Shown: one piece after another, positions 16,701 through 47,565 of the stretch
Layout of the letters: the number at the start of each line of letters is the position of its first letter
Position numbering within the stretch: position 1 is the stretch's first letter
Source: a virus
Taxonomy: Duplodnaviria; Caudoviricetes
Virus record (IMG/VR): IMGVR_UViG_3300030107_002626
Span: 1 to 55,309 of that record
Length of the DNA: 55,309 nucleotides
Direction: 5' to 3' (one strand)
The notes under the pieces: model-generated
Seen by the model: only the letters and a program-made list of their open reading frames with translations
Told to the model about the DNA's origin: nothing
The model's database searches: none
Translations under genes and position numbers: made by a program

Positions 16701-19700
16701 TCAGTCAGTAGAGGGATTCTATTCTCCGTATGTTGGTCAAATATTTGCAGCGATAGATCGTCTTCCTGCAGGCATGACGCCTGAGCAGCAGCAAGATTAT
16801 TTGATCGGCATTATTAATCATGAACAGATCCATGCAATGCGAGAGCTTGATCTGTTTACTGATAAAGAGTGGAAGCTTTTGTCGGGAATCGTTGCCAAGC
16901 GAAAGAACAGCAACGGAGTCACCTATTTAGATCAAGCTCGCAAAGACTACAGTGGGAGTCTTCCCTCTGTTCAGATCGAAGAGGCCGTTGCTGAATTAAC
17001 CAAAGACGCCAGAAAAGATTCCTCAGTTGTATCGGGCAAACCAAAGAATCTGCTGAACAGAATATCTGATTTCTTTGAGAGGCTTCGTAATTTCCTTCGG
17101 CTTAATGGCTTCCAGAGCTTTAGTGGAATCGTTGAAAGTATTGAGTCAGGTGAGATTGGTGGCCGTGAGCGCGGAGAGACAACTTCTACGACTGTTTACG
17201 CTCCTACACCTACCTCTACAGCGACTCGGACGACCCGTACCGGAGTAATAAGAACGTTCAGGGATGCAGAGCAAGAGGCCGAGTTAAGAGAAAGGATTCA
17301 GGGGGCTGCTGCCCGTGGTCCGTCCGGCGCTCAGCCAGACTTTTATGATCCCAACCGGCAGGCTCAAGATGATGAGCAAGAGACTGCGGTAGCTGATAAG
17401 GCAAGTGTAAGGGAAATAAAGACTAGAGTTCCTCTTCCTGAAGAACCTGCTCCTGTCCTTCCCATTGGGCCTGTTGAACAGGCTCTTATTGATTTGCTTT
17501 CTAAACATAGCTCTCCAACATCTAATCAACTAGGAAAGATTTCGGGTGCCCCTGCTCCCCGAACAAAGAAAACCCGTAGCGGGAGACGCTTAAAGAATAA
17601 GTTAGATGCGGATGTAAGGCCGACATCTATGTCCGAGCTACGAAAAATGGCGAGGATCGGTTTAGAAAGCAGCAATAACCTTAAGTGGTACGATGATTTT
17701 GGGAAGGGGATTCTGAGTATTGTCGGTGACGCCAATATGGCAGAAGCGTCTGTGATATTTGGAATCACATCTCAGCAAAATTCTCCAGAACAAAACCTTG
17801 CCGAAACGCTGCACATCATGGCAGTAGCAAGAGCCTTCAACCCGGTAAAACAAAAAAATGAATTTATATCTGCCTTGCGTAATGGAAGGAGGCCGGGTGG
17901 AAGCAAGCTGAAAATCAGTGGCGATCAAATAAATAGGATCGTCAGACTGTACAACGAAGGGTTTGCTGATGCTGGATTAAAGACATCCACTTATATGCAG
18001 ATGATTCAAGACAGAGCGGCCAATATATTTAATCCTTTCAGCGTTCAAGACGTACACATGGCTAGGGTCTTTGGGTTCAAAAGAAAGAAGGTTGACCCTA
18101 AGACCGGCAACGTAGTTGATGACTCTAAAATTCCTACGGATACAAATTATCGTTACGCTCAGTTCTTAACGAGTAAGCTTGCTGAGGAATTTGACTTAAC
18201 TCCAAATCAAATGCAGGCAGCTTTGTGGTTTTATGCCAAGAAAAATCTTAGCCCAAAGAAAGGTGGAAGCCCGGGAACATGGGAGTCTTCAAGAAGCAAA
18301 TCTCAACCAGAGATAGAACAGCTTTTGAGCTTAGAGAAGGCTGGATACCTCACGAAAGACAGGCCGCTTACTGAACCCCTTCTAAGTCCGGTCAAGGCTG
18401 CAAACAAGATTGCAACAAAGTCAGTAGCGTTTTCAAATACTTTGCAGAATGAAGATTTGTTAGAAGTTGCTAGGTTGCGTGCGCCTAAATCGGTGTTCTC
18501 AGCAAATCCCGGTAACAAAAGAGGTTATGGGTTTCCGAATGAGACAGAGCTTGCGGATGTCATTGAGTTTAATCGTGATGCAGTTGATGTCATCACAGAT
18601 GATGACGGGCAGATTCCATTTATCCGAGAGCTTGGTTTGCCGCATGAGATTCAAGTTGGGTTTGGTACTTATGAGGGGTTGGAACCAAATATCACCGTTC
18701 GCTTAATTGGTGGCACTCCTCGGCAAGCATCCTTCGTTTCTAATATTTTAGGCGATGCCTTATTGCAAGACGCCGCAATCATGGCAACTCCTGCTTTTGG
18801 ATCAGGGTCGCAGGTCGGTGTTGCCTTTCAAAAAGAAGATGGCAGCAATTTTGAAGTAGAAGATTTGGCGATAATTTCTGAGGCAGTAAACCCAGAAAAA
18901 GATGAGTACGGTCTAAACTTTACTCAGGTCACGCCAGATGTAATTGCCTTTATAGACGGCAGAGTCTACGATGAAAAGATAACATACAACGAAAAGCAAA
19001 TGCTTCCTGAGTTTATTGAGTCTCTCAGGAGTAAGATTCCAGAAAGTATTGGCCTCAACATGGGGGCTTTCTACCAAGAGGGTGATTATTTTGAGTCGAA
19101 AGACTACAAGAGAAATATTAAGCAGATTGGGAGTGAAGGAACTGTCCCCGGATCATCCGATATACTCGGCAGGCTCGATGATACGCTTTACAAACCGTTC
19201 TGGGACCACTACACAGCGACAGTCAAAAGGTTCGGATTCGATCCGAAAGAAAAAGAAAGACCCCGACCCGACCTAGATCAAGAAGGCAGAGAAGTAAAGA
19301 TAGAACCTGTTGGCGATGAATACTCTTTACTTGCCAACAGATTCTCTATCAGCGCCTCTCAGGCTAACTACGCAGTAGAGCAGAATGAGTTATCTGCGCT
19401 TGATGCCTCATCAGGCACCATGCCCAGATATAGTTTTACTGCTGCACCAGAATCTCAGTACGTTGCTCAAAATCCCGATCAATCTGACTACGCAGACCCG
19501 GTCCCCCTTGATAGGTATTCAAGGGCAAATACTCCCGACCTAGATCCTGAAGAGCAGTCTTTAATATCCGGCATCGTTACGTCTCCCCCAGAGAATGAGA
19601 CGCCGGGGCAGACGTATATGTCTGTTACGGGTGACAGCAAGCTTAGTTATTTCCTTGGCAAAGCTAAGCAAGGATTTATAAACAGGTACGCTCGTCTTGA

Positions 19701-22164
19701 AAAACTGAATCAAGTTCCTCAGCTTCGTGGAAATCTTGCAGACACTAGTAGTATTGCTGCCGCCCTGATGGCAGACAGGTCTAAAGGAATCCTCGCCTCG
19801 GCAATTAAGTCTGGAGCTATTAGCTATGAAGGGGGCGTAACCAAGGTTCAAGAATTTGTGCATAACGGCAAGTCGTATCGTGGCTTGCTTGAGGTTATGG
19901 CACCCCTATTTGATAACCAATACGGTAAATCTCTTGAAGAGATAGCTCAGGCATATGCAATCTCTATGCGTGCCGAAAGGCTTCGGGCGAAAGGGATACG
20001 CACTCCGGTAGAAGAAGGTGACTTAGATCAGATCAATGAGATCGTTGATCGCTACGTTAATCCTGAGACTGGGGAATCAATAGTTAAAGAATGGTATTCC
20101 GCTTGGCAGGCATACAACAACAACACGATTGAGTTCCTGAGAAACACAGGCGTGTTGGATGAGCAGACCGCAGAAGATTGGCGGGATATGTCTGACTATG
20201 TGCCGTTCTATAAGCAGGCAGAAGGGCAAGAGTTAGGCGGGAGATACCCTAAAATATTTTCTGGCCTTACAGCAGCCGCAGAGTTCAAGGAGTTAACAGG
20301 CGGCGAGAAAGCGATCAACGTTCCTCTCATGGAGGCAATAACCAGAAACCTCTCAATGGCTATTGAGATGGGCATGAAGAATGTTGCCCAGCAAAGAATA
20401 ACCAGAGACATGGTGAAGCTTGGCCTCGCCAGAGAAGCGCCTCGCGGCAGATCTGGATTGCCGACAGTTAAGTTCCGAGTTGATGGAAAGACTCTGGAAT
20501 ACATTATTGCTGACCCGCTGGTTTATGAGTCAATGCAGGCGCTATCGGATGGTGACCTGACCCAGACGATGATTAAGTATCTGGGTATGCCAGCTAATCT
20601 GTTGCGAGAAACTGTGACAAGAGACCCCGGCTTCATGTTAGTCAACATGCTTCGGGATACGTTGTCGGCTTGGACAACATCTGGATCAAGCTTTACTCCA
20701 GTCGTAGATACCCTAAAGGGTTTTGCTGACGGCATGGATGAGCTTGAAAGGTTTGGAGTTGTTGGTGGATACGACTTCACTAATGACCCAAAGGATGTGG
20801 TTAAGTTCTCGGAGAGAGAAGCCGCGAAGAAAGGCATTAAGATGAATGCCGATGGTGGTAGCGCGGCAATATTCAAGCCTTTTACTGCTATCTGGGACGC
20901 TCTTGGTAACGCCACAACTAGGTCGGATGCTGCCACAAGGAATGCTGTATACGAGGATGTCCTTGCCAGAACAGGGAACGAGGCTGAGGCTGCGTTTCAG
21001 GCATTAGAAGTAATTAACTTCTCAAGGCGTGGGACTAACCCGCTCATGCGGGTTATTACTGCTGCGATTCCTTTCTTAAATGCCAGAATGCAGGGTCTTG
21101 ATTTGTTCTACCGTGCCTACACTGGCAACTATACGGCGAACAAGGCTCTCAGTAAGAGCCAAGCTATGCAGTCTGCAGTAGTAAGAAGCAGCATGCTTGC
21201 GGCCCTGACTGGCTTTTACTATATGCTGGTCAGTGATGACGAGCAGTACAAGAACCAGTCGGATGAAGTCAAAGACCTAAACTTTATTATTCCCACGGCA
21301 TCAGGAACGCCGGTCAAGCTGCCAATCCCGTTTGAAGTGGGGCTCTTGTTTAAGACGCTGCCAGAAAGAATCCTAGATGCCACTGTTGGGGACACATCTA
21401 CAAGGGAGGCAAGGGAGAGCGCCCAAAGAGCTATATTGAATACGTTTGAAGTGAACCCCTTGGGGATTCAGGCGTTTGCTCCTTTAATAGAGGCGTCACT
21501 GAATCATAACTTCTACACAGGTAGAGACATTGTTCCTTATTACGTTGATCAAAATACTGTCGCAGGACTACAGTCTAATTTGGGGACATCTGAGGTCGCG
21601 AAGTTCGTAGGCAATGAGCTAAACATTAGCCCCATGAAAGTTGACCATGTCATGTATGGTTATCTTGGAACCATTGGGGCCTACGTTCTTGATGCCGTAG
21701 ATCATGTTATGAAATCTAGTTTGGCTACTGGAACCAAAGAGTCAGTTCTGCCTGCTAAGAAGATCACTGAGTATCCAGTAATTAAGAGGTTCTTTGCACA
21801 AGAGTTTGGCTCTGGCCTGCAAGAGGATTTTTACAGGGTTAACCGAGAGGTTAATAAGATTGTTGGATCTATCAACAAGCTGAGTAGAGAGGGACGGCTT
21901 GATGAATTGGAGGCTATGATCAAAGCCAAAGGTCACCTGTATGACCTAAATAAAGATACCAACTACATTGCGAACCAGTTGTCGAAGCTTAGGAAATACA
22001 GGAAATCAATTGAGTCTGCTGACCTTGATGCCGAAACAAAAAGAGAACTGCTTGATCAGGTCAGGGAAGAAACAAACTACATCTTGGAAGTTGTTCCTGA
22101 GTTAAAACGTCAGGCAGATTTGCCTGCGTTTGGTGGCAGGCTCATGGAGAGGATAAGCCTCTAG
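13789..22164 (+). CDS. Large polyvalent (injected) protein, 2791 aa
   Basis: HEQIH..EEAVAE zincin motif, central WY..SQQ..DVHMAR..QAALW domain, C-terminal LPD38-like region (IPFLNARMQG, PIPFEVG, NFYTGRDIVP). Confidence 0.8.
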   Translation: MDVRLPNGVLVTNVPDDISRDELARVSIKNNIASASDFEDFFAEQRTVSGQATEFLKGVPRGFANSFLTAGEGIAELADAATNAVGMDDLIDSGEENELVRASREGRNFINEQLGSDVAYNDTWTTKFGEGIGSFASFFTPAGALRIAGLAGKVVPKLGGMGATEAAVTGTLAVGTGSGEQAQRVQAAKDRGLDVSQGEEDLAILGGAVVGLSELAPVNRLLSRVSKTADAQFRKNLSDQLKGALLTGAAEGTQEVVASIAQDAIERGIYNENLPSNESLLDDFTVGGAIGTSADLVLNAVAGRRKNLEGEITLEKEREARARRSKLIEDSAQKLTAAQSAQAAQAEPRVEPEVGARVDPSQILPPDPDQIGPTGLGAPNRIVLATDMEGNSFQAEERTKTLRSKGESKEVKYILAPEEDGTFVEKVLSVDGVQNPQLDLSINEIQAPPESFVEARPTDETAAYGRHIARTMGDNFDFEPGSFSVKQEGLDRNGMPQFRVVDSKGDNYGTNLPSYEEAVKLAGVLNDEIIDRNIINGLVTILDISDQSLSPEATRTMMLYGFRALHPDENTYTIAEVNSAAGTTIAEGFSENNYDANGKSVLKEMIALGTSPRKMTAAQRINAKRLQQGLPETTTFTVQEAKSVLGKNFGKLADKPSEIETETYTTRKLKKGRNKGNFVVVSSSGEVINSRPATALEKQQAREAGKRAPSKIKLVTMGEARKYANVLNKNKDIGLVDESVFSEKEVNISLVQSLLRSKNISSPIGSPEVRTLAELFTGVSAKGRKKISDFSPAELKVFYQKLRSLPRFDSPTNLVDLKLKPYSRAQFQQGVESAKISPAEGSIKDYIASEVGIDTSTERGQRKLDALMSDLESQGSFRKDEQIQEEVETPVLALPGPDDFQVKLQAAAEAAMDKVGLKDVGVNIGRALNNALRNAEGEIVYGVRRRLPGDDPDSTIFLGGDSDIVVETSPDQSVEGFYSPYVGQIFAAIDRLPAGMTPEQQQDYLIGIINHEQIHAMRELDLFTDKEWKLLSGIVAKRKNSNGVTYLDQARKDYSGSLPSVQIEEAVAELTKDARKDSSVVSGKPKNLLNRISDFFERLRNFLRLNGFQSFSGIVESIESGEIGGRERGETTSTTVYAPTPTSTATRTTRTGVIRTFRDAEQEAELRERIQGAAARGPSGAQPDFYDPNRQAQDDEQETAVADKASVREIKTRVPLPEEPAPVLPIGPVEQALIDLLSKHSSPTSNQLGKISGAPAPRTKKTRSGRRLKNKLDADVRPTSMSELRKMARIGLESSNNLKWYDDFGKGILSIVGDANMAEASVIFGITSQQNSPEQNLAETLHIMAVARAFNPVKQKNEFISALRNGRRPGGSKLKISGDQINRIVRLYNEGFADAGLKTSTYMQMIQDRAANIFNPFSVQDVHMARVFGFKRKKVDPKTGNVVDDSKIPTDTNYRYAQFLTSKLAEEFDLTPNQMQAALWFYAKKNLSPKKGGSPGTWESSRSKSQPEIEQLLSLEKAGYLTKDRPLTEPLLSPVKAANKIATKSVAFSNTLQNEDLLEVARLRAPKSVFSANPGNKRGYGFPNETELADVIEFNRDAVDVITDDDGQIPFIRELGLPHEIQVGFGTYEGLEPNITVRLIGGTPRQASFVSNILGDALLQDAAIMATPAFGSGSQVGVAFQKEDGSNFEVEDLAIISEAVNPEKDEYGLNFTQVTPDVIAFIDGRVYDEKITYNEKQMLPEFIESLRSKIPESIGLNMGAFYQEGDYFESKDYKRNIKQIGSEGTVPGSSDILGRLDDTLYKPFWDHYTATVKRFGFDPKEKERPRPDLDQEGREVKIEPVGDEYSLLANRFSISASQANYAVEQNELSALDASSGTMPRYSFTAAPESQYVAQNPDQSDYADPVPLDRYSRANTPDLDPEEQSLISGIVTSPPENETPGQTYMSVTGDSKLSYFLGKAKQGFINRYARLEKLNQVPQLRGNLADTSSIAAALMADRSKGILASAIKSGAISYEGGVTKVQEFVHNGKSYRGLLEVMAPLFDNQYGKSLEEIAQAYAISMRAERLRAKGIRTPVEEGDLDQINEIVDRYVNPETGESIVKEWYSAWQAYNNNTIEFLRNTGVLDEQTAEDWRDMSDYVPFYKQAEGQELGGRYPKIFSGLTAAAEFKELTGGEKAINVPLMEAITRNLSMAIEMGMKNVAQQRITRDMVKLGLAREAPRGRSGLPTVKFRVDGKTLEYIIADPLVYESMQALSDGDLTQTMIKYLGMPANLLRETVTRDPGFMLVNMLRDTLSAWTTSGSSFTPVVDTLKGFADGMDELERFGVVGGYDFTNDPKDVVKFSEREAAKKGIKMNADGGSAAIFKPFTAIWDALGNATTRSDAATRNAVYEDVLARTGNEAEAAFQALEVINFSRRGTNPLMRVITAAIPFLNARMQGLDLFYRAYTGNYTANKALSKSQAMQSAVVRSSMLAALTGFYYMLVSDDEQYKNQSDEVKDLNFIIPTASGTPVKLPIPFEVGLLFKTLPERILDATVGDTSTREARESAQRAILNTFEVNPLGIQAFAPLIEASLNHNFYTGRDIVPYYVDQNTVAGLQSNLGTSEVAKFVGNELNISPMKVDHVMYGYLGTIGAYVLDAVDHVMKSSLATGTKESVLPAKKITEYPVIKRFFAQEFGSGLQEDFYRVNREVNKIVGSINKLSREGRLDELEAMIKAKGHLYDLNKDTNYIANQLSKLRKYRKSIESADLDAETKRELLDQVREETNYILEVVPELKRQADLPAFGGRLMERISL

Positions 22165-27275: not shown

Positions 27276-29069
27276 GTGCAAGATGTGCTAGACGATTTTT
27301 TGCAATCAATCACGCAGGAGGGGCGCTACATCTGCCCAGTCTGCACCCCGGGCAGGCAGAAGAAACACCAAACCGAGAGGACGCTGGCGGTGTCGTTCAC
27401 TCCAGATGGAGGCACCATCTTCAAGTGCCACCACTGTGACATAGGTGGTCGAGCGAGCGACAAGAAGCCGACAATCATTGAACAGCCGCGCAAGGTCACC
27501 GCTATCTCGGTTCCAAAGACATCGGATCTTGGGTTGATTGGCGAATACCTAACGTCGAGGGGGATTGATGAGTCGCGAGTTGAGGGCTACGAGATCGTCA
27601 CGGGCAAGAGATATTTCAATGGGCGCGGCGAGACACCAGCGGGGGAGGTTCCTGCCATAGGGTTCGTCTACGGGGACAGGGAAGCGGTCAAGTGGCGACC
27701 ACTGAACACCAGCGACAAGAGATTCACGCAGGATGGCGCGGCCAGAATCTTATGGAACATTGAGCATGCGCGGAGGTCTGAGCCAGAAACGCTCGTAATC
27801 ACAGAGGGGGAGGTCGACGCACTGTCTGTAGCGTCATCTATCATTGATGATCAAATAGTTGTAGTGTCTGTTCCGAACGGCGCTCCACAAAAGGTGTCGA
27901 ACAAGAGGCTTGATCCGTCTGAAGACGGTAAGTTCGCTTACATCTGGGACGCCAAGGATGTCATTAAAAAGGTAAAGAGAATTGTCCTTGCCGTTGATCG
28001 CGATGAGGCAGGGGAAGCCCTGAGAGAGGAGCTTGCCAGACGGATAGGTCGAGCCAAATGTTACTCGGTTGAGTACTTAGATGGGTGTAAGGATTCCAAT
28101 GATGTCTTGCAGAAGCATGGTGCTGAAGCAGTCGCGAGGATTATTGCGACGGCTACGCCAATGCCCTTGGAAGGCGTCTACTCTGCGGAGGATTACATGA
28201 GCGAAGTCGCACACCTTTACGACAACGGAGTGGTCGGCGGTCTGTCCACTGGGATTGCCCCGGTGGATGACCTGTTCACTATCGTCCCGGGTCAGCTATC
28301 AGTGGTCACTGGTGTCCCCGGTTCTGGAAAGTCTGAGTTCATTGACCAGATCATGGTGAACCTAGCCCGTCAGCATGACTGGAAGTTTGCCGTTGCTTCC
28401 TTTGAGAATCCTCCTCCACTTCACATCGCTAAGCTGGCTGAGAAAATTGTTGGCGCACCGTTTTTCGCTGGCTCATCGGGACGCATGAGCAGGGAGGACG
28501 CCGACAACGCGCTGGCCTATATACATAAGCACTGGATGTTCTTGGAACAACGAAGCGGCGAGTTGGTCACGATTGACTCGATACTCGACCGTGCCCAGCA
28601 AGCGGTCATGCGGATGGGTGTCAGGGGTCTGGTCATCGACCCATATAACTACATTGCCCAGCAAACAGCCGCTGACAACGAACACCAATCAATCAACGAA
28701 CTGTTAACCCGACTGGTGGCCTTCGCTCGGGCGAACGACGTTCACATCTGGTTCATCGCGCACCCATCGAAGATGCCGACTGATCAGGCTGGAACGACTG
28801 CAGTGCCAAAGGGCATGAACATCTCGGGCTCGGCAAGCTTTTTTGCCAAGGCGGACCTTGGTGTCACCGTCCACCAAAATAAAAACAGAGAGGTCGAGAT
28901 CCATTGCTGGAAGGTTCGCTTCAAGTGGGTTGGGTCGGTCGGCAAGTGCACTCTCGACTACGACGTTTTGTCCGGCAGGTACAGCGCCCACGTACACAAG
29001 CCATTGGTTGTGCCCACGAGTTTGGCACCAGTCAAGGCGCATCACGAAACGGATGACGATTGGCTGTAG
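27276..29069 (+). CDS. Primase-helicase (T7 gp4/Twinkle-like)
   Basis: CPVC..CHHC Zn finger, TOPRIM ITEGEVDALS and DRDEAG, Walker A GVPGSGKS, VIDPYN. Confidence 0.93.
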   Translation: MQDVLDDFLQSITQEGRYICPVCTPGRQKKHQTERTLAVSFTPDGGTIFKCHHCDIGGRASDKKPTIIEQPRKVTAISVPKTSDLGLIGEYLTSRGIDESRVEGYEIVTGKRYFNGRGETPAGEVPAIGFVYGDREAVKWRPLNTSDKRFTQDGAARILWNIEHARRSEPETLVITEGEVDALSVASSIIDDQIVVVSVPNGAPQKVSNKRLDPSEDGKFAYIWDAKDVIKKVKRIVLAVDRDEAGEALREELARRIGRAKCYSVEYLDGCKDSNDVLQKHGAEAVARIIATATPMPLEGVYSAEDYMSEVAHLYDNGVVGGLSTGIAPVDDLFTIVPGQLSVVTGVPGSGKSEFIDQIMVNLARQHDWKFAVASFENPPPLHIAKLAEKIVGAPFFAGSSGRMSREDADNALAYIHKHWMFLEQRSGELVTIDSILDRAQQAVMRMGVRGLVIDPYNYIAQQTAADNEHQSINELLTRLVAFARANDVHIWFIAHPSKMPTDQAGTTAVPKGMNISGSASFFAKADLGVTVHQNKNREVEIHCWKVRFKWVGSVGKCTLDYDVLSGRYSAHVHKPLVVPTSLAPVKAHHETDDDWL

Positions 29070-29118
29070 CCACTAGATGTAGTGGGTCAAGGGGGCAGAG
29101 GGGCACTAGATGTAGCCC
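29070..29118. promoter_or_regulatory. Tandem NrdR-box-like palindromes
   Basis: ccactagatgtagtgg (29070-29085) and gcactagatgtagccc (29103-29118), 33-bp offset. Confidence 0.45.
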
Positions 29119-29594
29119 CCTACCCCCATCTATAAGTGCTCTAAGTGCCCTAAGTTGGGCACTGGAATTTAACCCCCCCTAGTTTTTTTCCATCCCATAA
29201 GTAAGTGACCACTAACCATGCTACCTATGGGGTGTCCCATATCTAAAGGGCTGGCGAGAGAAAAAGGGGGTGTGATAGAAAAGGGCAGAAAAATTTTGGA
29301 GTTGGTCCCGCCAACGACGCGGACGGGTGCGCGTGACCAAGAGCTTGGCTCTTGTGTCGAGGCAGGAATTAGGAGAGGTGGCCCCTGCCTCGCAGGGATG
29401 CGCGGGGTGGAGGCAGGGGCCGGAAGGCGAGGGTGTGCAGTCCCTCGTGAAAGGGATTCTGCACAAAGGGAAAGGGTGGTGCAAGTGCCGCAGTGCCCTG
29501 CTCTCGTTCAAACCCAATGGAGCTTGGGTGCCAACCAAAGAGCAAGGCTTAACCGGGACGCGGCCTACCGTCTAGGAGGGTTGGCTTTTTTAGT

Positions 29595-29762
29595 CTAACA
29601 CTGTGGTGATCGAGACTCGTAGTCTGGCCAGTGCCCGGAGCAAACCATGTCCCGATACTGATCAGCGACTGCGACTTCAGCCTCATGGTCCAAAGTGCTG
29701 GCGATCAGGATGAGGATTACTAGTAGCCCCAGACCGATCCGTCTTAACCATTGAGCGTTCAA
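29595..29762 (-). CDS. Small membrane protein (55 aa, not in ORF track)
   Basis: TTG start overlapping the upstream TGA, GGAG RBS; MNAQWLRRIGLGLLVILILIASTLD..MVCSGHWPDYESRSPQC*. Confidence 0.6.
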   Translation of the reverse strand: MNAQWLRRIGLGLLVILILIASTLDHEAEVAVADQYRDMVCSGHWPDYESRSPQC

Positions 29763-29977
29763 TGTAATTCTCCCTCTGCGTTGCCGTCCACCTCATCGAG
29801 GAAGTCGGCGTACTTTGATGCAGCCTCCACACAGAGAAATGAAGCCCGGCCAATGTTGTCGACTTGGTTGGCCGCGAGGAATGCCACGAGCACGAACACG
29901 ATCTCCTCGTCTTCGGCATTTTTCGGCATGATCTTTTGAATTTTTCTGAACCATTTTTCGTTGAGCAATGTTTTCAT
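29759..29977 (-). CDS. Hypothetical protein
   Basis: 72-aa ORF directly after the 347-aa gene. Confidence 0.6.
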   Translation of the reverse strand: MKTLLNEKWFRKIQKIMPKNAEDEEIVFVLVAFLAANQVDNIGRASFLCVEAASKYADFLDEVDGNAEGELH

Positions 29978-29978
29978 T

Positions 29979-31022
29979 TTATTGATCCTTATTGTCCCGT
30001 AGGACGAGGTCGGTTTTTAGGATGCCAATTTCGGCGTTACCGGGTGCACAATCCTGCACCCATGTGCGGGTCTTGCCTTTGTTGGGGCCTGACTTGAGTG
30101 GCTTTGCGAAGTGTCGCCAATGCCCTGCTCGGAAGTGCTTACGCACCGTGCCGGGTGCCCGGGCAGTTGATTCGCCGCGAGGATCAGGCTCCGGGCTAAG
30201 GTCGCGCTCGATCACAACGTGTTCAAACTTTGGATACTTGTGCCCGTGAACAGGCTTAATCTTCCGCTCGGATGAGGGCTTCAGTCCCCGGTAGGTGGTG
30301 GTCTTCGCCGTGCGGCTGTTAATCATCTCCCACCAACTGAGAAACATATCCACGAGACTAGGGAGCAATTTTCCTGCGTCATCTAAGGGATTGCCTAGCC
30401 ACGCTGAAATGTAGGTCGGCTCGATGTCATCTGTGATTTTGAAGTGCACCTCGACTGGTAGCGGCCAAATGTCTGGCGACTGATACACGTAGTAGTTGAC
30501 GGAGATGAATTGCTCATCGGGCTCGACGCTCAGTTCTGGATAGCCTTCTTCGACAGTCCGATACTCCGCGAACATCAAGACCGTGGTTTCGCCATTCTCG
30601 CTGTGGAGGGTGGTGCTGATCGTGACCCACGGAAATGGCAAGCGCAGCGGCGTGGTTGGGATCGTGCTTGGGTCTCTATCCCAGCAATGATCTTTCGACA
30701 GGCTTGGAGTTGTGTACTTCATCCCGCTTCGGACGGCGCAGGCAACAGCGTCTTCAGTCTGAAAGCTCATCCACTTGATTGCCTCAGATTCGGCATGGCC
30801 TCTGTCTCGATGTGAAACAAACTTCATGTGAACCCAATAGTCTGTGATGCTTTTAAGCATCCGGCCAAAGGGCGTTGCGTCATCCACAATGATTGTTTCG
30901 ATGTCGCCATCGCTGGCAGTGATGGCCTTGATCTCAAACTCTGCCATCTTCGCGATCTGGTCATGCAGTCTCATCAGCGAATGGAACTCTCGCCCCAGAC
31001 CGACATCTTTTTTCCTGCTCAT
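29979..31022 (-). CDS. Hypothetical phage protein with C-terminal HxRxGHWR motif
   Basis: 347 aa; RKHFRAGHWRHF..TWV; CTAGGAGG RBS. Confidence 0.8.
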   Translation of the reverse strand: MSRKKDVGLGREFHSLMRLHDQIAKMAEFEIKAITASDGDIETIIVDDATPFGRMLKSITDYWVHMKFVSHRDRGHAESEAIKWMSFQTEDAVACAVRSGMKYTTPSLSKDHCWDRDPSTIPTTPLRLPFPWVTISTTLHSENGETTVLMFAEYRTVEEGYPELSVEPDEQFISVNYYVYQSPDIWPLPVEVHFKITDDIEPTYISAWLGNPLDDAGKLLPSLVDMFLSWWEMINSRTAKTTTYRGLKPSSERKIKPVHGHKYPKFEHVVIERDLSPEPDPRGESTARAPGTVRKHFRAGHWRHFAKPLKSGPNKGKTRTWVQDCAPGNAEIGILKTDLVLRDNKDQ

Positions 31023-31042
31023 TTTGAACCTCCTAGTTGGTT

Positions 31043-31109
31043 GGATTCCACGGAACCCACCGTAGCGGTGGGTTTTCGCCCGGTTTCCCTCCGGGTCTCG
31101 TCAGCGTGG
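31043..31109 (-). ncRNA. Hammerhead ribozyme, type I (HHR5)
   Basis: ccacg CUGACGA g-a-cccgg agggaaa ccggg-c GAAA acccaccg cua cggugggu UC^ cgugg aaucc; cleavage 31053/31052. Confidence 0.9.
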
Positions 31110-31110
31110 T

Positions 31111-31254
31111 TCATGCTTCGATGATTTGAAAATCAAAGATCTCCCGAATCTTTTGAACTGCCTCCAAGCACTCGCTGTAGCTGCCTTGAATGTCTGACTC
31201 AAACCATTCTGAGTGCAAGTAGTCCCGCTCGCGAAGGTTAACGACGTAATACAT
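31111..31254 (-). CDS. Small hypothetical protein (47 aa, not in ORF track)
   Basis: GGAG RBS; MYYVVNLRERDYLHSEWFESDIQGSYSECLEAVQKIREIFDFQIIEA*; stop 1 nt before HHR5. Confidence 0.6.
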   Translation of the reverse strand: MYYVVNLRERDYLHSEWFESDIQGSYSECLEAVQKIREIFDFQIIEA

Positions 31255-31335
31255 ATTTGATGCTCCATATTTATGGGGGGGTTGCCCCCCCAGTAAGTGA
31301 TAGAAAAGTTTTCTGCAAGGCTTTGGGAAAATCTA

Positions 31336-32745
31336 TCAGTCGACGTGAATGATCTCCCCGAACTGCTCGCACCCGTAAAAATACGGATCGCTGAGATTGG
31401 TAACCCAAAACACAGGATAATCCGGTGTCTCAAAGTCCCTTCCTCCTGCGGGATCATTGGGGCCGACCCAACCCTCGCCGTCTGTAAAGTAGATCAGCGC
31501 ATGCAGGTCGATCTCTTCCGCATCAACCCAGTTGAACACTGGGGTGAAGGACGTGCCGCCGCCACCGTAGAACGCAATCTCGACATCCTCGCCGCGCTCG
31601 TACTCTTGAGTGTGCTGCACCGAGTCGTCGCAATAGACAACATGCGTTTTAATCGGATCGATCTCCGCAACAATGTCGTTGATGTGAGAAGCGTAGACGG
31701 CTAACTCATCATCGGTGAGTGACATAGATGTATCCACGGCAACGACCAGCACGCCGTTAGGCTCCTGCTGAGAGTCCGGCAGGATCAGACCCTGATGAAT
31801 CAGGCGTCGATCTGGCGTCGAGTAGCATTCCTCGCCGGGCACGGTATCGTGCAAGGCACCGGCCAGAATCTCATGCCAAGGCTGCGGGTCACGGCGTTGT
31901 GCGTCGAGAACGTTGCGTAACCATCCTCCGCTGCCATGACCCTGATGCTTGTCATGTTGGCGCTGGACCTGTGCTGCCTGTTGATTGAGCGAATCAATCT
32001 CGACCTGCTCGATGATCTGCTCGTCCTCGCTGAGCGCATTGCCGTCATCGTTGACTCCGTCGAGGACTTCACCCCAACCACCTGAGCCGCTCGGCGTATC
32101 ACCGGAACCATTGTTCGGCTCGCCATCGGGATCGCCTGAACCGTCGACTGGATACCCTCCGGGATACCCTCCGGGGCCACGGGGCTTGCCCTCGCCATCA
32201 TCGTTACCCGATTGGCCGTCAGACGGATCGCCTTCAGACTGCTCGGAATCAGCGCCAGACTGCTCGGTCTCGACGGGGTGATGGGCCTGCTCATTACCCG
32301 GTTGGTTGCCGGGCTGATCGCCGGGCTGGTTACCGGGCTCATCTTCCGCAGCCTTTTGATTGGCCGCGAAGTGACGCTCGGCGGACCAGTTATCCTGCCC
32401 GGGCTCAGGGTACACGCCATCTGCAGGCAGCACGAATCCGGCCTTGCGTAAGAGACCATTGATCGCCTGATCGCAAGCGATGTTCCACGCCTTTTGGTCT
32501 CGGGTGCCACGGCGCAGGTGGTGCCCGTTGTTGACGTGCATGCATTCATGAGCCAGCACGCCAGCAGTCTCGGCAACGCTCAGGGTCTCGACCCATGCCG
32601 GATTGAAAAACAACGACTTGCCGTCAGTCGCCATAGTCTGGGTGACCGTCTCATCAGCCCGGAACGCGAACCGATGCAGTCGGACTGCGAAGTAGGGATG
32701 GTCAGTGACCATGCGCTTTTTGGCTTTGGCGATTTTGTTATCCAT
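31336..32745 (-). CDS. Metallopeptidase-VWA protein (DUF2201-like)
   Basis: TMATDG, HECMH zincin motif, WNIACD..IN, acidic linker, VAVDTSMS MIDAS, GGGGT, YFTDG. Confidence 0.9.
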   Translation of the reverse strand: MDNKIAKAKKRMVTDHPYFAVRLHRFAFRADETVTQTMATDGKSLFFNPAWVETLSVAETAGVLAHECMHVNNGHHLRRGTRDQKAWNIACDQAINGLLRKAGFVLPADGVYPEPGQDNWSAERHFAANQKAAEDEPGNQPGDQPGNQPGNEQAHHPVETEQSGADSEQSEGDPSDGQSGNDDGEGKPRGPGGYPGGYPVDGSGDPDGEPNNGSGDTPSGSGGWGEVLDGVNDDGNALSEDEQIIEQVEIDSLNQQAAQVQRQHDKHQGHGSGGWLRNVLDAQRRDPQPWHEILAGALHDTVPGEECYSTPDRRLIHQGLILPDSQQEPNGVLVVAVDTSMSLTDDELAVYASHINDIVAEIDPIKTHVVYCDDSVQHTQEYERGEDVEIAFYGGGGTSFTPVFNWVDAEEIDLHALIYFTDGEGWVGPNDPAGGRDFETPDYPVFWVTNLSDPYFYGCEQFGEIIHVD

Positions 32746-32763
32746 TTGATGTCTCCTAGTTGT

Positions 32764-32831
32764 TGGATTCCGCAGAGGCCCACCTCCCGGGGCCTTTCAC
32801 GCTGGGGTCCACCCAGCACTCATCAGTGCGG
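32764..32831 (-). ncRNA. Hammerhead ribozyme, type I (HHR4)
   Basis: ccgca CUGAUGA gugcuggg uggac cccagcgu GAAA ggccc cgggaggu gggcc UC^ ugcgg aaucca; cleavage 32775/32774. Confidence 0.87.
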
Positions 32832-33707
32832 TTAGTCGAAGAAACCCGAAAGCTTGCTCACGATCTCCTTGGCCGTGTCAGCGGCCTGCTGGCGCTTGCC
32901 CTCGTCTTCGCGCAGCACCTGCGGGTCCAGATCGCGAAGCTTAAGAAACAGGTCGTTCGACACTGCAGTCAACGCCGGGTCACCCGTCAGGTTGAGGCCG
33001 GGCAGTGCTTCAGCGAGCCGCTCGATTGCCTCGACCGTACTGTCAGCGAACTTGCTCGCACGCTTAGCGCCGTCAGCCTTCGTGCCGTGCCGTTCCATGC
33101 CCTCGATGAACGTGGTCAGCACCTCCGCAACACGCTCACTGACGACCTTGGCCCCGGCTTCGACCTTGGCTGCAACATCCCGCTCGACCTGCTGCCGGAT
33201 CGCGTTCACGCGCTGCTGCGGCAGGTTTACGCGAATGTCATCGCCAGAGGGCAGCGGCATCAACTTATAGCTGATGCTGTAGCGGTTGACGATCTCGGTA
33301 ACGGACGGGTAGTCGTTCTCATCGAAGGCGGCACCCAATCGAATCCTGTCCGCTTCGATGACGGCAGGCCATGTGTCCTGCAGTTCAGACTTCAGTTCCT
33401 CAAGACGGTCAGCTTTTTTCCGCAGAGCAGCCTCAAAACGGTCGAGATTGTCGACGGTGATGAGGTGAACGCCGTCATCCCAAGGCACGGTCCAAAGTCG
33501 CAAAACCGTGTTCCCAACTTGTCCGATGATCTTGTTCAACTCTTTAACCACGGCCTGTTTCGCTAGGCGTTTGGTGACGCGCAGATAACCATCTGCCGCA
33601 GACTTGTCGAAGGTCACCTGATCAGTGATCTCACGGTCGGTGATGCTGTTGTTCCATTTGGTGCAGCGCACCTTGACGAGCATCGCGTTGGTTTGAATCT
33701 TATCCAT
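32832..33707 (-). CDS. DUF3150-like protein (291 aa)
   Basis: Start reset to ATG 33707 after CTAGGAG; TVPWDDG, DYPS, PLP motifs; between the AAA and VWA genes. Confidence 0.7.
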   Translation of the reverse strand: MDKIQTNAMLVKVRCTKWNNSITDREITDQVTFDKSAADGYLRVTKRLAKQAVVKELNKIIGQVGNTVLRLWTVPWDDGVHLITVDNLDRFEAALRKKADRLEELKSELQDTWPAVIEADRIRLGAAFDENDYPSVTEIVNRYSISYKLMPLPSGDDIRVNLPQQRVNAIRQQVERDVAAKVEAGAKVVSERVAEVLTTFIEGMERHGTKADGAKRASKFADSTVEAIERLAEALPGLNLTGDPALTAVSNDLFLKLRDLDPQVLREDEGKRQQAADTAKEIVSKLSGFFD

Positions 33708-33718
33708 TGTTGTTTCTC

Positions 33719-34816
33719 CTAGATTGTTAAATGTTGAGTGTCGAGTTTGAACTGCACGAAGGACTCGCACGCCTTCAGGTCGCTGTCACGATTGCCTGCG
33801 ATCATGAAGAACACTGACAGCAGTTCCTCGTTGATCCGCTTCAGGTAGCTGGCTGCGTTGTCGATGTTTCCGATGTCGCAACGCTGCGCGAGGATCATGG
33901 TGATGGCGTAATGCGTCGCCAGTTCCCGCTCACCCGGCACGTCAACGCTGTCGGGGTCTGAGAGGATCAGCCCAGCGTCCGGGAGTGCCCTGACGATGCT
34001 CAGGAACCCGGCGAACTCACTGCCAGCACCAACGCCCACTGCACCGTTGATCGCGATCTGCTCAAGCAATCGAGGCAGACCGGATCGAAGGATCTCGCTC
34101 ACTGCCTCCCAAGTCCTAGGCGTTGCCGCCGTGACGTGACCCTTTGGTATGCCGCCGTCCGGGTATTCGTGGAGCATGCCTGCCTGATCAACCTCGCCGT
34201 TGCCGTCGAGGACAGGACGGCCACGCGCTGCTAGGAAGGCGATGACTTCAGGTGCCCAACCTGCAGATGTGGCGTACTCGATGAACGGCGTGAGCGCCGG
34301 AACGATGTTCAGGTGCGTGCCAAAGCGCGTCAGCAGGGCCGCATCCTGTCGTCCGTGTACACCTGCCCCATCGCATGGGCGATTGCTCGCGACGATCACT
34401 CGCCACCCGGGAGGCAGGATGTAGTCACCGAGGCAACCATCATTGACCAGTTGGTAGCACGCCGCTTGCGACTGCTGAGCGCCGAGCAGCATCTCATCCA
34501 TGAGGAGCAGACCAAACTCACCGTCACGCTCGACGCGAGGTAGCCACCCCGGTAGCTTGAACTCGGTGAAATCGCCGACGATGTCGGGAATGCCGCGAGT
34601 GTCTACTGCTTGGAGTTGAGACAAACGGGCATCGATCAGGCCCCACTGCTGCCCGGTCTGCTCGCTCAGGCTCGCAACCACGGACCGAACGATGCTGGAC
34701 TTGCCGACCCCAAACGGGCCCCACAGGAACACGGGGCGTATGTCGCGAGGCACAAGTGCCTCGATGATTGTCGCGGCCTGTTCAAGGGTCGCGTCAGGAA
34801 TGTTTGAAAATGACAT
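33719..34816 (-). CDS. MoxR-like AAA+ ATPase (365 aa)
   Basis: Start reset to ATG 34816 after CTAGGAG; Walker A GPFGVGKS, Walker B LLLMDE, VASNR, ALLTRF, TPRTW. Confidence 0.9.
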   Translation of the reverse strand: MSFSNIPDATLEQAATIIEALVPRDIRPVFLWGPFGVGKSSIVRSVVASLSEQTGQQWGLIDARLSQLQAVDTRGIPDIVGDFTEFKLPGWLPRVERDGEFGLLLMDEMLLGAQQSQAACYQLVNDGCLGDYILPPGWRVIVASNRPCDGAGVHGRQDAALLTRFGTHLNIVPALTPFIEYATSAGWAPEVIAFLAARGRPVLDGNGEVDQAGMLHEYPDGGIPKGHVTAATPRTWEAVSEILRSGLPRLLEQIAINGAVGVGAGSEFAGFLSIVRALPDAGLILSDPDSVDVPGERELATHYAITMILAQRCDIGNIDNAASYLKRINEELLSVFFMIAGNRDSDLKACESFVQFKLDTQHLTI

Positions 34817-34836
34817 ATGAATCTCTCCTAGTTTTT

Positions 34837-34898
34837 GGATTCCACAGACGCCCGTCAGGGCGTTTCGGCCAGTGTCCCGCTGGCACTCATCAGTGTGG
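34837..34898 (-). ncRNA. Hammerhead ribozyme, type I (HHR3)
   Basis: ccaca CUGAUGA g-u-gccag cgggaca cuggc-c GAAA cgccc ugac gggcg UC^ ugugg aaucc; cleavage 34847/34846. Confidence 0.92.
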
Positions 34899-34907
34899 CT
34901 CAACCCG

Positions 34908-35336
34908 TCAATACCAGCGATTAAATCCTGAGAGAGCGGCGTTGATTGGGTAGTCTTCCTGCTTGTTGCTGGGGGCGACCTTGCGGAGGATCGCGTTGAT
35001 GCGACGTGGATCGCCCAGCACCACGTTGTCGCAGCGCGGGTGCTTCGCGAAAAACTCAGCGTGCCGCCGTTCCATCGCGGCATTAGTCAGGCTGGTGCTG
35101 CCAAATGTGTAGCCGTTGATCGTCTCAGGTTGCGGCAGATGCTTGCGTGCCTCGACAATCCCCAGCGCCGCACGGCGCTCAGCGGTGCGCGGCACAATGA
35201 ATTTTTCCCAGCGGCGAGGCCCCTCAATAAACTCGCTGCGCTTCGCCGCGAAGCCTTCGCGCTTCAAGATCTCCAGCGCTCGCTGCTCGGCTGCCGTGAC
35301 CTTTAAGGTCCGCCCGTTCAGTGTGATGGTCTTCAT
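34908..35336 (-). CDS. Hypothetical protein
   Basis: 142 aa; ACTAGGAG RBS; flanked by HHR2 and HHR3. Confidence 0.8.
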   Translation of the reverse strand: MKTITLNGRTLKVTAAEQRALEILKREGFAAKRSEFIEGPRRWEKFIVPRTAERRAALGIVEARKHLPQPETINGYTFGSTSLTNAAMERRHAEFFAKHPRCDNVVLGDPRRINAILRKVAPSNKQEDYPINAALSGFNRWY

Positions 35337-35354
35337 GATGTTCTCCTAGTTTTC

Positions 35355-35417
35355 GGATTCCACAGACGCCCCGGGTGGGGCGTTTCGACTGGTGTCCATC
35401 CAGTCTCATCAGTGTGG
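35355..35417 (-). ncRNA. Hammerhead ribozyme, type I (HHR2)
   Basis: ccaca CUGAUGA gacugg auggaca ccaguc GAAA cgcccc accc ggggcg UC^ ugugg aaucc; cleavage 35365/35364. Confidence 0.93.
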
Positions 35418-35418
35418 G

Positions 35419-35961
35419 TTAGATTGCGGCATACGCCGGGAAGCTTTGCTCTTCTCTGAGAAGGTCTTCCCAGACCGAGTCGATCAAGCGATGCCCCAGC
35501 GCAGCGTTGAAAAAGTCGAGCAGTTCACGAGCGTTTCCGCCGTGTCTCTCGGCGATGATGTCAAATGCTCTGACGACTCCTCTCTGAGCAGTGCTCCGTG
35601 AACAGTTGTACTCACTGGCAGTGAGCGCCGTGAACTGCTCAATGACGAACGAATTGAGTTGCCGGTACGCCAGCAGTGAATCATTGGGCCGACCTTTGTA
35701 GATAAGTTTGGCAAGCACCTGCAGCCTGCGGCGGTTCCGCTCGTAGGTGGCCTGACCGTCGTTCTCATAGCTGCCCTCGACCCACAGGCTGAGGCAGTCG
35801 GCTGCGCGGGTCGTCTGAGCCGCTTGGGTGAGTGCACTGAACCCGACCAGTTCACGCTCGGGCCGGGTGGCACCTGCACTCTTCAGATCGGCAGTGTGAG
35901 AGGCATGCGCCCATTCGATGTCTAGTACCAGATCGTTGGCGATGGTTTGGGTGACGTTCAT
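35419..35961 (-). CDS. Hypothetical protein (first gene of the operon)
   Basis: 180 aa; ACTAGGAG RBS; flanked by HHR1 and HHR2. Confidence 0.8.
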   Translation of the reverse strand: MNVTQTIANDLVLDIEWAHASHTADLKSAGATRPERELVGFSALTQAAQTTRAADCLSLWVEGSYENDGQATYERNRRRLQVLAKLIYKGRPNDSLLAYRQLNSFVIEQFTALTASEYNCSRSTAQRGVVRAFDIIAERHGGNARELLDFFNAALGHRLIDSVWEDLLREEQSFPAYAAI

Positions 35962-35980
35962 GATGTTCTCCTAGTGGTTT

Positions 35981-36033
35981 GCGTTTCGGCCTGCCGTGGC
36001 CCTCGTCAGTGCATCGGCATTAGATGCATACGC
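35981..36033 (-). ncRNA. Hammerhead ribozyme, type III (HHR1)
   Basis: gcg UA^ ugcauc uaaugcc gaugca CUGACGA g-ggcc acggca ggcc GAAA cgc; loop I UGCC complementary to loop II GGCA; cleavage 36029/36028. Confidence 0.88.
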
Positions 36034-36221
36034 TGTACATGCTCTCGCATGTACCGGGGCACTCTGGGTGACATGAGGTCACGCCCCGCGACGGTGTGTA
36101 CGCTTTACGCCTCTCCGGCATTCTTACCGGGTCAAAGGGTGCGCCGGATTCAAACCGGAGGGCCGAGGCCCCATCAAATAGCAGTGATTAAGTAAGTGAG
36201 TAAGTAATGAATGAGATTCGA

Positions 36222-36250
36222 AAGATACACACCAATCACCCTACATGCAA
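36222..36250 (-). promoter_or_regulatory. Putative sigma70-type promoter of the ribozyme operon
   Basis: TTGCAT-17 bp-TATCTT on the minus strand. Confidence 0.55.
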
Positions 36251-36607
36251 CACCTGTACAACAAATAGTTAACAGTCACGGTATGCCGTGCGATTGGTCA
36301 GGATCAGAGCGAATAAATTTGCCTATATATGTAGTAAGACTTAGGGCGTCCGTAAGTTGTTGATTCATAAGGCGTATTGCGTGTAAGGCGTTTTCTGTCA
36401 CTCCAGATACCAGTGCAAGGGTGATGGCTAAAACCGCTTAGAACGGCTCTGAGTGCGTCTGTGGCGTGTCAAGTGTTTGGCGAAAATATCTGCATCTTGA
36501 GTGCATGTCCTGCGTTGTATGTCAACGTTGACCCGTCTCATGTTTCTATGCTGGGGCCTTGGTGCTGGATAGAATCCCGGCATTAGCTATTGCCGGACCA
36601 ATGACCA

Positions 36608-37063
36608 ATGCCGACCAGTGAACTGACACCCAAGATGCTGCACTTCGCCCGATGCGTTGCGGGTGGAATGACCCAAGCGGACGCCTATCGAGAGGCATAT
36701 GACCCCAGCGACTCAACCACTGCCGCGAGCATCCACACGTTGGCGTCTAGGCTGATGTCACGGGTTGAGATCAGGTCAAGGGTAGATGTGCTGATAGCTG
36801 CTAGAGAGAGAGCAGTTGCAGCCTCAGCGGTCTCCGACCGAGAGCGAGTCCTAGGCCAACTCCGAGACTGGATGGACTCAGCAGAGCCCACCGACAGCAA
36901 CCGGCTCCGTGCCGCTGAACTGCTGGGACGTGCATCGGGGCTGTTCGCCACCGAGGTGAACGTGACGAACCGAGAGAGAGACGCAACAGAGGTAGCTGCA
37001 GAGTTGGAGCAGCGGCTGGCAGGCATCCTCTCTGCAGTCGAGCCAGAGGCAGATGTTCACTGA
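36608..37063 (+). CDS. terS: Terminase small subunit
   Basis: LTPKM..FA..GMTQADAYREAY..ASRLM..RLRAAELLGR; upstream of terL. Confidence 0.8.
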   Translation: MPTSELTPKMLHFARCVAGGMTQADAYREAYDPSDSTTAASIHTLASRLMSRVEIRSRVDVLIAARERAVAASAVSDRERVLGQLRDWMDSAEPTDSNRLRAAELLGRASGLFATEVNVTNRERDATEVAAELEQRLAGILSAVEPEADVH

Positions 37064-46952: not shown

Positions 46953-47040
46953 TTGACCGCTTGTTCTTTTAATATCTTTCCCCTGACTGTAATGTTCCAA
47001 CTAGAGCATTAGCAGACACTAGCCAAGACAGGAGAAACAC

Positions 47041-47565
47041 ATGGCTAATACCACCTTCACCGGAGCAGTCCGGTCTGAAAACGGCTTTGATGTCGTTTCA
47101 AAAAACAGCACAACCGGAGCGTTTACCACATCCTTTACCCTTGACGGGTCTGGTATGCAGGTTACCCCGGTCTCTCTGGCCGACGCTGCCTCCACAACAT
47201 TGACCGCTGCTGTAAATGGTGGCCGTATAAATCTGGTTGGCGACAACAGCCAAGACAGCACTTATACGCTGCCAGCTCCTGCTGCCGGGGTCTTTTATCG
47301 TTTTGTTTATGCAGGCGCTGCGGCAGATGCTACTGATGCGCTTATTGTTACCCCCGGTAACACAAACTTTTACAAAGGCGGCGTAACCTTTTTGGATACG
47401 GACAACGAAGTAAGTGTTGTGTTCTCCGATGGGAACTCTAATAGCAGCATTCAGATTAATGTTCCTGCAGCTTTCGACATCACGATCATTGGTTTGGATA
47501 CTACCAATTACCAAATCTTTGGGACCGTGACTGGCGCAACTGCTCCCGCGTTTGCTGATCAGTAA
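47041..47565 (+). CDS. Hypothetical structural protein
   Basis: 174 aa; MANTTFTGAVRSENGF, TLPA; beta-rich. Confidence 0.75.
   Translation: MANTTFTGAVRSENGFDVVSKNSTTGAFTTSFTLDGSGMQVTPVSLADAASTTLTAAVNGGRINLVGDNSQDSTYTLPAPAAGVFYRFVYAGAAADATDALIVTPGNTNFYKGGVTFLDTDNEVSVVFSDGNSNSSIQINVPAAFDITIIGLDTTNYQIFGTVTGATAPAFADQ

Follow-up and report, generated by a model that had tools for sequence, protein, structure and literature searches.

What does a self-cleaving ribozyme in front of a gene do for the message that begins behind it? This question is raised by the IMG/VR virus record IMGVR_UViG_3300030107_002626, which was analyzed whole (55,309 bases, estimated completeness 97%; hereafter, the window). 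An operon on its minus strand, running from about 36030 to 29760, carries hammerhead-like elements between its genes, and a sequence-only reading of this DNA had proposed that hammerhead cleavage would give each gene a standardized leader of 28-30 nt, as a natural insulator. In the present study, the anatomy of the type I elements is well supported, and by sequence and covariation they qualify as bona fide hammerheads. The conserved rule is an order of parts, namely ribozyme, G-poor linker, Shine-Dalgarno sequence (SD), and AUG, seen across 34 distinct junctions; a fixed leader length is not part of this rule.

Four Type I Hammerheads within the Operon

The core pattern CTGANGAG-N6-36-GAAA matched the window seven times against 1.68 matches expected, and none of 100 shuffles reached seven. 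Six of these matches lie on the minus strand of the operon and represent five sites, because the site at 31104 is counted twice; the seventh is at 43886 on the plus strand. Four complete type I hammerheads were recognized on the minus strand, namely HH1 (35355-35417), HH2 (34837-34898), HH3 (32765-32831), and HH4 (31043-31109). All four follow the same order, with the 5' strand of stem I, CUGA(U/C)GA, the stem II hairpin, GAAA, the stem III hairpin, U-C at the cut, and the 3' strand of stem I, which corresponds to the type I topology of an open stem I and closed stems II and III. The invariant core (C3 U4 G5 A6 N7 G8 A9, G12 A13 A14, A15.1-U16.1, and H17) is present at every site, with cleavage after C17; the predicted cuts lie between 35365 and 35364 (HH1), 34847 and 34846 (HH2), 32775 and 32774 (HH3), and 31053 and 31052 (HH4).

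The covariance model R1, built from 37 distinct type I elements, scored the four sites at 77, 75.7, 72.9, and 66.6 bits (HH1 to HH4); it gave 65 matches in 830 kb, and in the window it matched these four only. The three-way junction was the minimum free energy or the centroid structure at every site, and both for HH1, whose fold z-score was -3.6. In HH1, the 5' strand of stem I occupies 35417-35413, the 3' strand 35364-35360, and the pseudoknot partner AAUCC 35359-35355; the corresponding partner in HH2 is at 34841-34837, and stem II of HH2 has one bulged U. Positions N1.1 and N2.1 are paired in all four sites, and pair 10.1-11.1 is G-C in HH1, HH2, and HH4 and G-U in HH3 and in 10 of 35 relatives. 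The upstream stop codon abuts stem I of HH3, and the UGA within the CUGA core of HH4 (31101-31104) is the stop codon of an open reading frame (ORF) of 54 amino acids (aa), so that a terminating ribosome would sit on the ribozyme.

The relatives were collected through the MoxR-like AAA+ ATPase gene of the operon. A protein search gave ATPase homologs of 94% to 46% identity, an alignment of 26 retrieved 80 viral loci, and a scan of one metagenome yielded L270 (ATPase 94% identical) and L271 (85%). At 35 of the 52 loci L121-L172, the ATPase start is preceded by a type I hammerhead whose end lies 24-41 nt away; none of the 27 more distant loci L173-L199 has one there. The ribozyme at the ATPase junction is kept across homologs of 44% to 94% identity. 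Among 36 distinct sequences, 93.9% of cells were paired in an alignment that was fitted to the nested structure and therefore favors it (91.6% overall in a plain MAFFT alignment), compared with 73.0% in shuffles, none of 500 of which reached the observed value, and 30-41% in slid controls. Pairing amounted to 100% in stem I, 96% in stem II, and 97% in stem III, and two-sided changes were found in 15 of the 17 pairs, five in each stem.

In addition to the nested stems, a pseudoknot joins loop II to the tail behind stem I. Its four pairs were 94.7% paired against 10-62% when slid, as counted on the model alignment, which was made without knowledge of that pairing, and with few independent events; at pair 30-72, UA occurs in 21 sequences and AU in 11. 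The partners change together in the ATPase-linked family (AUCC/GGAU, ACCA/UGGU, and AACUA/UAGUU), and other elements pair as UGCC/GGCA, GCCA/UGGC, and GCAA/UUGC; the last three and AACUA/UAGUU are out of register and also pair. Pseudoknots are described in Perreault 2011 for all three hammerhead types, and in a type II construct fast cleavage was shown to require them (PMC3088659).

Some relatives depart from this anatomy. Two elements before the ATPase gene, L169:5914-5983 and L164:5918-5986, have the cores UUGAUAAG and CCGAUGAG instead of CUGAUGAG; these ribozymes may have lost activity or represent variants. Positions 10.1 and 11.1 are both U in L126 and L167. A loose pattern scan of viral contigs gave mostly chance matches; nine loci among L005-L120 passed the type I filter, and the hammerhead candidate of L061 was judged spurious and dropped from all later counts.

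Outside these loci, few counterparts were found. GenBank phages gave no DNA match to the operon, and their ATPase homologs were all below 33% identity; a single-protein search for close relatives found none in the viral or genome contig sets. The genome-contig loci (ATPase identity of at most 36%) had no type I hammerhead by the strict pattern script, the only scan applied to them, and Pelagibacter phage HTVC027P had no match to R1. A short hammerhead query against GenBank phages gave only weak gut-phage matches. One unannotated intergenic segment, MG711465.1 52979-53023 of Faecalibacterium phage FP_Brigit, has 83% identity to the core and stem II of HH2 and is a probable further hammerhead.

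A Type III Element Ahead of the First Gene

The fifth element, HH0 (35981-36033, minus strand), is of type III, with the core, closed stems I and II, and an open stem III; its cut is predicted between 36029 and 36028, after GUA. Since stems I and II are closed hairpins, the ribozyme would remain on the downstream mRNA, and the first gene (ATG at 35961) would have a structured leader of 67 nt. Stem III has 4 bp, compared with 5-8 bp in relatives. Loop I (UGCC) can pair with loop II (GGCA), and this pairing is UGCU/AGCA in L123. HH0 is identical in the close relative L270, and type III homologs lie directly ahead of an SD in eight loci (L121, L123, L124, L125, L128, L131, L134, and L135).

The non-coding minus-strand segment upstream of HH0, 36034-36300, has about 85% identity to L270 over ~390 nt. 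A hairpin lies directly 5' of the HH0 cut site, and its loop differs between the window and L270; the fold z-score is -2.3. The segment has no tRNA, Rfam match, or promoter-like site, and it could be a conserved 5' untranslated region or a small RNA freed by the ribozyme.

Anatomy of the Short Leaders

The leaders behind the four type I cuts are those of the 142-aa gene (35337-35364, 28 nt), the ATPase gene (34817-34846, 30 nt), the DUF2201 gene (32746-32774, 29 nt), and the 347-aa gene (31023-31052, 30 nt). The distances of 28, 30, 29, and 30 nt from cut to ATG (35336, 34816, 32745, and 31022) given in the sequence-only reading were thus reproduced, and so was its order of leader parts; the spacing between SD and AUG is 6-8 nt rather than the 6-9 nt it gave, so that the motif reads YGYGG-AAUCC-(A-rich linker)-CUAGGAG-N6-8-AUG. 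Its extension to each gene of the operon did not hold, since only four of the eight ORFs have such a leader; one has the 67-nt leader of HH0, and three are without a ribozyme. As the elements are, on sequence grounds, bona fide hammerheads, cleavage would leave a 5'-OH on the short leader, in agreement with the earlier prediction.

Concerning the parts, each leader comprises 5 nt of stem I, 5 nt of pseudoknot partner, a linker of 5-6 nt, the CUAGGAG SD, and 6-8 nt to the AUG. The first 10 nt belong to the ribozyme, because they are the stem I strand and the covarying partner of the loop II pseudoknot, in which the UCC of the AAUCC tail pairs with an invariant GGA in loop II. The SD belongs to the operon: six CTAGGAG copies lie on the minus strand of the window and serve the six large operon genes as SD, one each, at 6-8 nt from the ATG; two more lie on the plus strand, and no ORF follows either. 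Two of the six genes, the 180-aa and the 291-aa gene, have no type I hammerhead. The linkers of the window sublineage and the other relatives contain 3% G, compared with 29% on the operon strand. Based on these data, the uniform leader of 28-30 nt is explained mostly by ribozyme parts and an operon-wide ribosome-binding site, tightly packed.

A further arrangement was seen in eight relatives (L121, L123, L125 at its ATPase leader, L126, L132, L025, L046, and L088), in which the leader repeats the 5' strand of stem I a few nt past the pseudoknot partner. The cleaved RNA could therefore form a 5'-terminal hairpin in these relatives. The pairings UGUGG/CCACA, UGCAG/CUGCA, UACGG/CCGUA, and CGGG/CCCG indicate that this helix covaries; the window leaders lack the hairpin.

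Conservation of Leader Length

The uniform length extends to the closest relatives. In L270, where a type III element is also present, the five type I leaders measure 30, 28, 28, 29, and 30 nt, and L271 has one type I leader of 30 nt, so that all 10 junctions of the window, L270, and L271 fall within 28-30 nt. At least seven different genes follow these junctions, several without a homolog in the other phage. To this extent the standardized length stands. It does not stand in more distant relatives, where 24 distinct junctions range from 24 to 41 nt (standard deviation 5.1, compared with 0.9 in the window sublineage) and two junctions of the same phage differ by up to 17 nt (24 and 41, 26 and 36, and 29 and 32 nt). 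Four random draws from these other relatives span at most 2 nt with P=0.033, a value to be read with the shared ancestry of the sublineage junctions, which are not independent.

In all 34 distinct junctions the start codon lies 24-41 nt past the cut, and a recognizable SD is present in 33, with one junction lacking it. By comparison of these sequences, the length of 28-30 nt is a lineage-specific property of the window phage and its closest relatives only.

Proposed Function and Alternatives

As the best overall explanation, we consider it fairly probable that the hammerheads split the operon RNA into messages of one or two genes, buffered from variable neighboring cassettes. The operon would be transcribed as one long RNA, which the five hammerheads would cut during synthesis. 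HH0 would remove the upstream untranslated RNA and stay on the first cistron as a structured 5' end, and the four type I elements would fill the spacers from each stop codon to the next ribosome-binding site. Upon cleavage, the upstream message would keep stems II and III with a 2',3'-cyclic phosphate, and a 5'-OH would start the downstream one; except for the last, each message would finish with the two hairpins and the cyclic phosphate of the ribozyme that follows it. The leader of 28-30 nt would be what is left downstream of the cut when a ribozyme is packed with the least possible space against a standard ribosome-binding site. The likely use would be messages of one or two genes whose ends, decay, and translation are independent of the variable cassettes next to them. 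That the RNA is cut in vivo is inferred, as are possible consequences for message stability or translation; a stabilizing and insulating function is plausible. In the literature, the role of hammerheads in bacteria and phages is still called unproven or open (PMC6155905, PMC6765202).

Several observations weigh against this explanation. The predicted SD accessibility, from folding that left the pseudoknot out, was the same in the uncleaved RNA (with 250 nt of upstream RNA) and the cleaved RNA (0.40/0.40, 0.30/0.26, 0.62/0.56, and 0.67/0.61), and on thermodynamic grounds nothing therefore suggests that translation depends on cleavage. In predicted folding, the leaders are at least as structured as their own shuffles, so that the idea of specially unstructured leaders is left with the linker's lack of G; with loop II gone, weak pairing is possible between the UCC thus released and the GGA of the SD. 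In L270, the ortholog of the 347-aa gene (73% identity) lacks a hammerhead, which means that the ribozyme is dispensable at this junction. With an RNase J-type host enzyme, the 5'-OH might instead mark the message for decay. As for the ribozymes themselves, HH3 carries a G-U pair beside the core, and the criterion in Perreault 2011 was no mispair adjoining the core. No Rfam hammerhead model reached its gathering score in the window and 12 related loci; the best sub-threshold match was RF03152 (RAGATH-1-hammerhead), with 29 bits for HH1 and 26.4 bits for HH4 against a gathering score of 56.3, and RF00008 gave 20.8 bits. The elements resemble RF03152 in their type I topology and in a core and stem III that align over the full model, but the additional 5' hairpin of RF03152 does not form in the window. 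At gathering scores, the Rfam models overlook the present subgroup of marine-phage hammerheads.

A stricter form of insulation, in which selection would hold the leader at 28-30 nt for equal translation and the 5'-OH would shield the message from 5'-end-dependent RNase E in the manner of a natural RiboJ, is possible but on the whole unlikely. The 10 uniform junctions of the sublineage and the P value of 0.033 for a four-draw span of at most 2 nt are in its favor, as is the same junction sequence before non-homologous genes (the 142-aa gene and a 204-aa ORF in L270). RNase E is reported to cut monomeric 5'-hydroxylated oligonucleotides poorly (PMC2948425), and cleaved RiboJ mRNA in E. coli was modeled with a 2-fold slower decay than uncleaved mRNA (PMC7536230). 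RNase E can, on the other hand, bypass the 5' end by direct entry, which is described as independent of it (PMC2948425; PMC4191395), and the folding gives no gain in SD accessibility after cleavage. Moreover, the length drifts over 24-41 nt in the 24 junctions outside the closest relatives, including pairs of 24/41 and 26/36 within one phage, the sublineage junctions are not independent draws, 10 of the 28-30 nt are ribozyme, and the SD is also found on genes without a type I hammerhead. Quite improbable is the idea that cleavage lowers or conditionally tunes the downstream genes as in glmS, through RNase J-type attack or through a cut speed that depends on conditions or ribosomes. The stop codons lie 0-9 nt from stem I, or within the core (HH4), so that a terminating ribosome would melt an uncut ribozyme, and regulated cleavage of phage hammerheads is raised in the discussion of Perreault 2011 (PMC3088659); yet no ligand-binding or extra domain is visible, the pseudoknot is of the kind tied in the same source to fast constitutive cleavage, and strong SDs with G-poor linkers point to high rather than low expression.

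We regard two further readings as very improbable. The hammerheads of one genome share nearly the same stem I and pseudoknot partner, and for this reason it is conceivable that the end of an excised segment rebuilds a ribozyme with another end, giving circular or spliced RNAs. The four elements of the window and the five of L270 have almost the same stem I and tail and differ in stems II and III, and the ends of HH1 and HH2 are fully compatible and those of HH2 and HH3 compatible via one G-U pair; but the HH3 and HH4 ends meet in an A-C mismatch, the hammerheads of L125 and L167 have incompatible stems I, likeness within a genome is expected from duplication alone, and a search for spliced or circular products reported in Perreault 2011 found none (PMC3088659). 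The other reading takes the hammerheads as passengers or relics without a role in expression, and it would account for their variable presence among close relatives (at the 347-aa gene, a hammerhead in the window and none in L270) and for the altered cores of L169 and L164. It fits poorly with elements that all have the sense orientation, that lie without exception between a stop codon and an SD, and whose structure is maintained by compensatory changes, and with the ribozyme retained at the ATPase junction from 44% to 94% identity.

A Possible Exchange Linker

A separate proposal concerns the junction itself: the type I hammerhead, the fixed leader, and the CUAGGAG SD might together form a portable junction for swapping gene cassettes in this phage lineage. 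We put this forward tentatively and hold it to be rather doubtful. The shared junction of 25-30 nt would offer a recombination site, and the ribozyme would free the conserved downstream gene from an incoming upstream cassette. Between the window and L270, identity is 94% for the ATPase, 92% for the 291-aa gene, 84% for DUF2201, 73% for the 347-aa gene, and 51% for the 180-aa gene (a 200-aa ORF in L270), and the small genes between the hammerheads differ. The junction of the 142-aa gene equals that of the non-homologous 204-aa ORF in L270 up to the SD. In addition, mapping of four DNA runs gave variants and break points: the match between the window and contigs of related phages from other marine runs ends within HH1, HH2, and HH3, at 35379, 34870, and 32791. 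Different small genes, a common junction, and break points within ribozymes suggest that the junction may serve as a cassette-exchange linker; if so, it would be an evolved standard part and not merely an RNA-processing site.

The contigs that break off within the ribozymes continue with a different hammerhead tail and leader, one tail being AAUUC instead of AAUCC. Between the DUF2201 gene and the small ORF behind it, where other junctions have a hammerhead, there is a G7-CAA-C7 hairpin (31271-31290), which is kept in L270 (about 8510-8532) though the next gene differs.

Comparison with Known Systems

Processing of phage RNA by clustered hammerheads was already proposed in 2011, and the operon of the window is a further case. 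Clustered hammerheads flanking prophage genes were inferred in Perreault 2011 to process long phage transcripts (PMC3088659). The likeness covers several type I and type III elements on either side of single genes or small groups of genes of a phage operon, with loop-to-tail or loop-to-loop pseudoknots, and a proposed cutting into gene-length mRNAs (PMC3088659). Unlike those clusters as described there, the present elements stand at a fixed short distance from a standardized SD, and their order was traced through 34 junctions of one phage clade. A term search of the main text of Perreault 2011, whose supplements were outside its scope and may list related examples, found no mention of an SD, ribosome binding, or an ATPase/DUF2201 module (PMC3088659). 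In a literature search, DUF2201, hammerhead, and twister were not found together among the matches listed.

The HHphage of haloviruses HF1/HF2 is likewise a hammerhead a few nt upstream of a start codon in a polycistronic transcript; its cut site is reported 13 nt upstream of the start codon of an early gene, with a mapped transcript 5' end within 3 nt (PMC3088659). It differs, in the account given there, in belonging to an archaeal virus, in its core-variant ribozyme, and in its single site with no repeated junction.

RiboJ consists of a hammerhead and a 23-nt hairpin, and according to its description it strips variable upstream RNA from ahead of a ribosome-binding site and leaves a defined 5'-OH end, as would be expected here (PMC7536230). 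The sequence-only reading had likened the leaders to RiboJ, and this likeness fits only in part. HH0 has the same topology, in which the ribozyme is kept on the mRNA, whereas the bodies of the four type I elements would leave with the upstream fragment, so that only 10 nt of ribozyme would remain, with no added hairpin.

A self-cleaving ribozyme in a bacterial 5' leader is known from glmS, where the 5'-OH product determines the fate of the mRNA; glmS has a different fold, is ligand-dependent, and destabilizes its message.

The clade offers a natural series, with the same ATPase gene with and without the ribozyme, leader lengths of 24-41 nt, a 5' hairpin in the leader or none, and type I elements inside the operon compared with type III at its head. 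This series turns the idea of processing and insulation into direct reporter tests, and the clade could supply compact natural parts that combine a ribozyme with a ribosome-binding site.

Gene Content of the Operon and the Window

The operon comprises eight ORFs on the minus strand, six of them large genes, and is directed away from the terminase and structural genes. The first cistron, the 180-aa gene (35961-35419), has its CUAGGAG SD at 35974-35968 and gave no match in Pfam or PHROG. It is followed by the 142-aa gene (35336-34908), the gene for the 365-aa ATPase (34816-33719; phrog_1297, 2.6e-55), and the 291-aa gene (33707-32832), which lies 11 nt from the ATPase gene, without a hammerhead and with its SD at 33722-33716; a type I hammerhead is present at the homologs of the 291-aa gene in L164 and L167. 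The DUF2201 gene (32745-31336) encodes a metallopeptidase-like N-terminal domain and a VWA-like domain (PF13203, 1.6e-41; PF09967, 4.7e-18). The 54-aa ORF (31265-31101), which has no hammerhead in front, the 347-aa gene (31022-29979), and a 72-aa ORF, again without a hammerhead, complete the operon.

A promoter scan of 29000-37000 found no promoter-like sites, terminator-like sites in this region were at chance level, and a tRNA scan found none. The DNA runs containing the window sequence are labelled marine, a look for RNA runs covering 29900-36100 gave none among those listed, and by terminase the nearest cultured phage is Pelagibacter phage HTVC027P, with 55% identity. The tail-gene region holds one ORF of 2791 aa (13789-22164, plus strand). 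The sole Rfam match at gathering score in the window is a Mu-gpT-DE RNA (46981-47043, plus strand, 50.6 bits), which ends at the ATG of a 174-aa gene at 47041.

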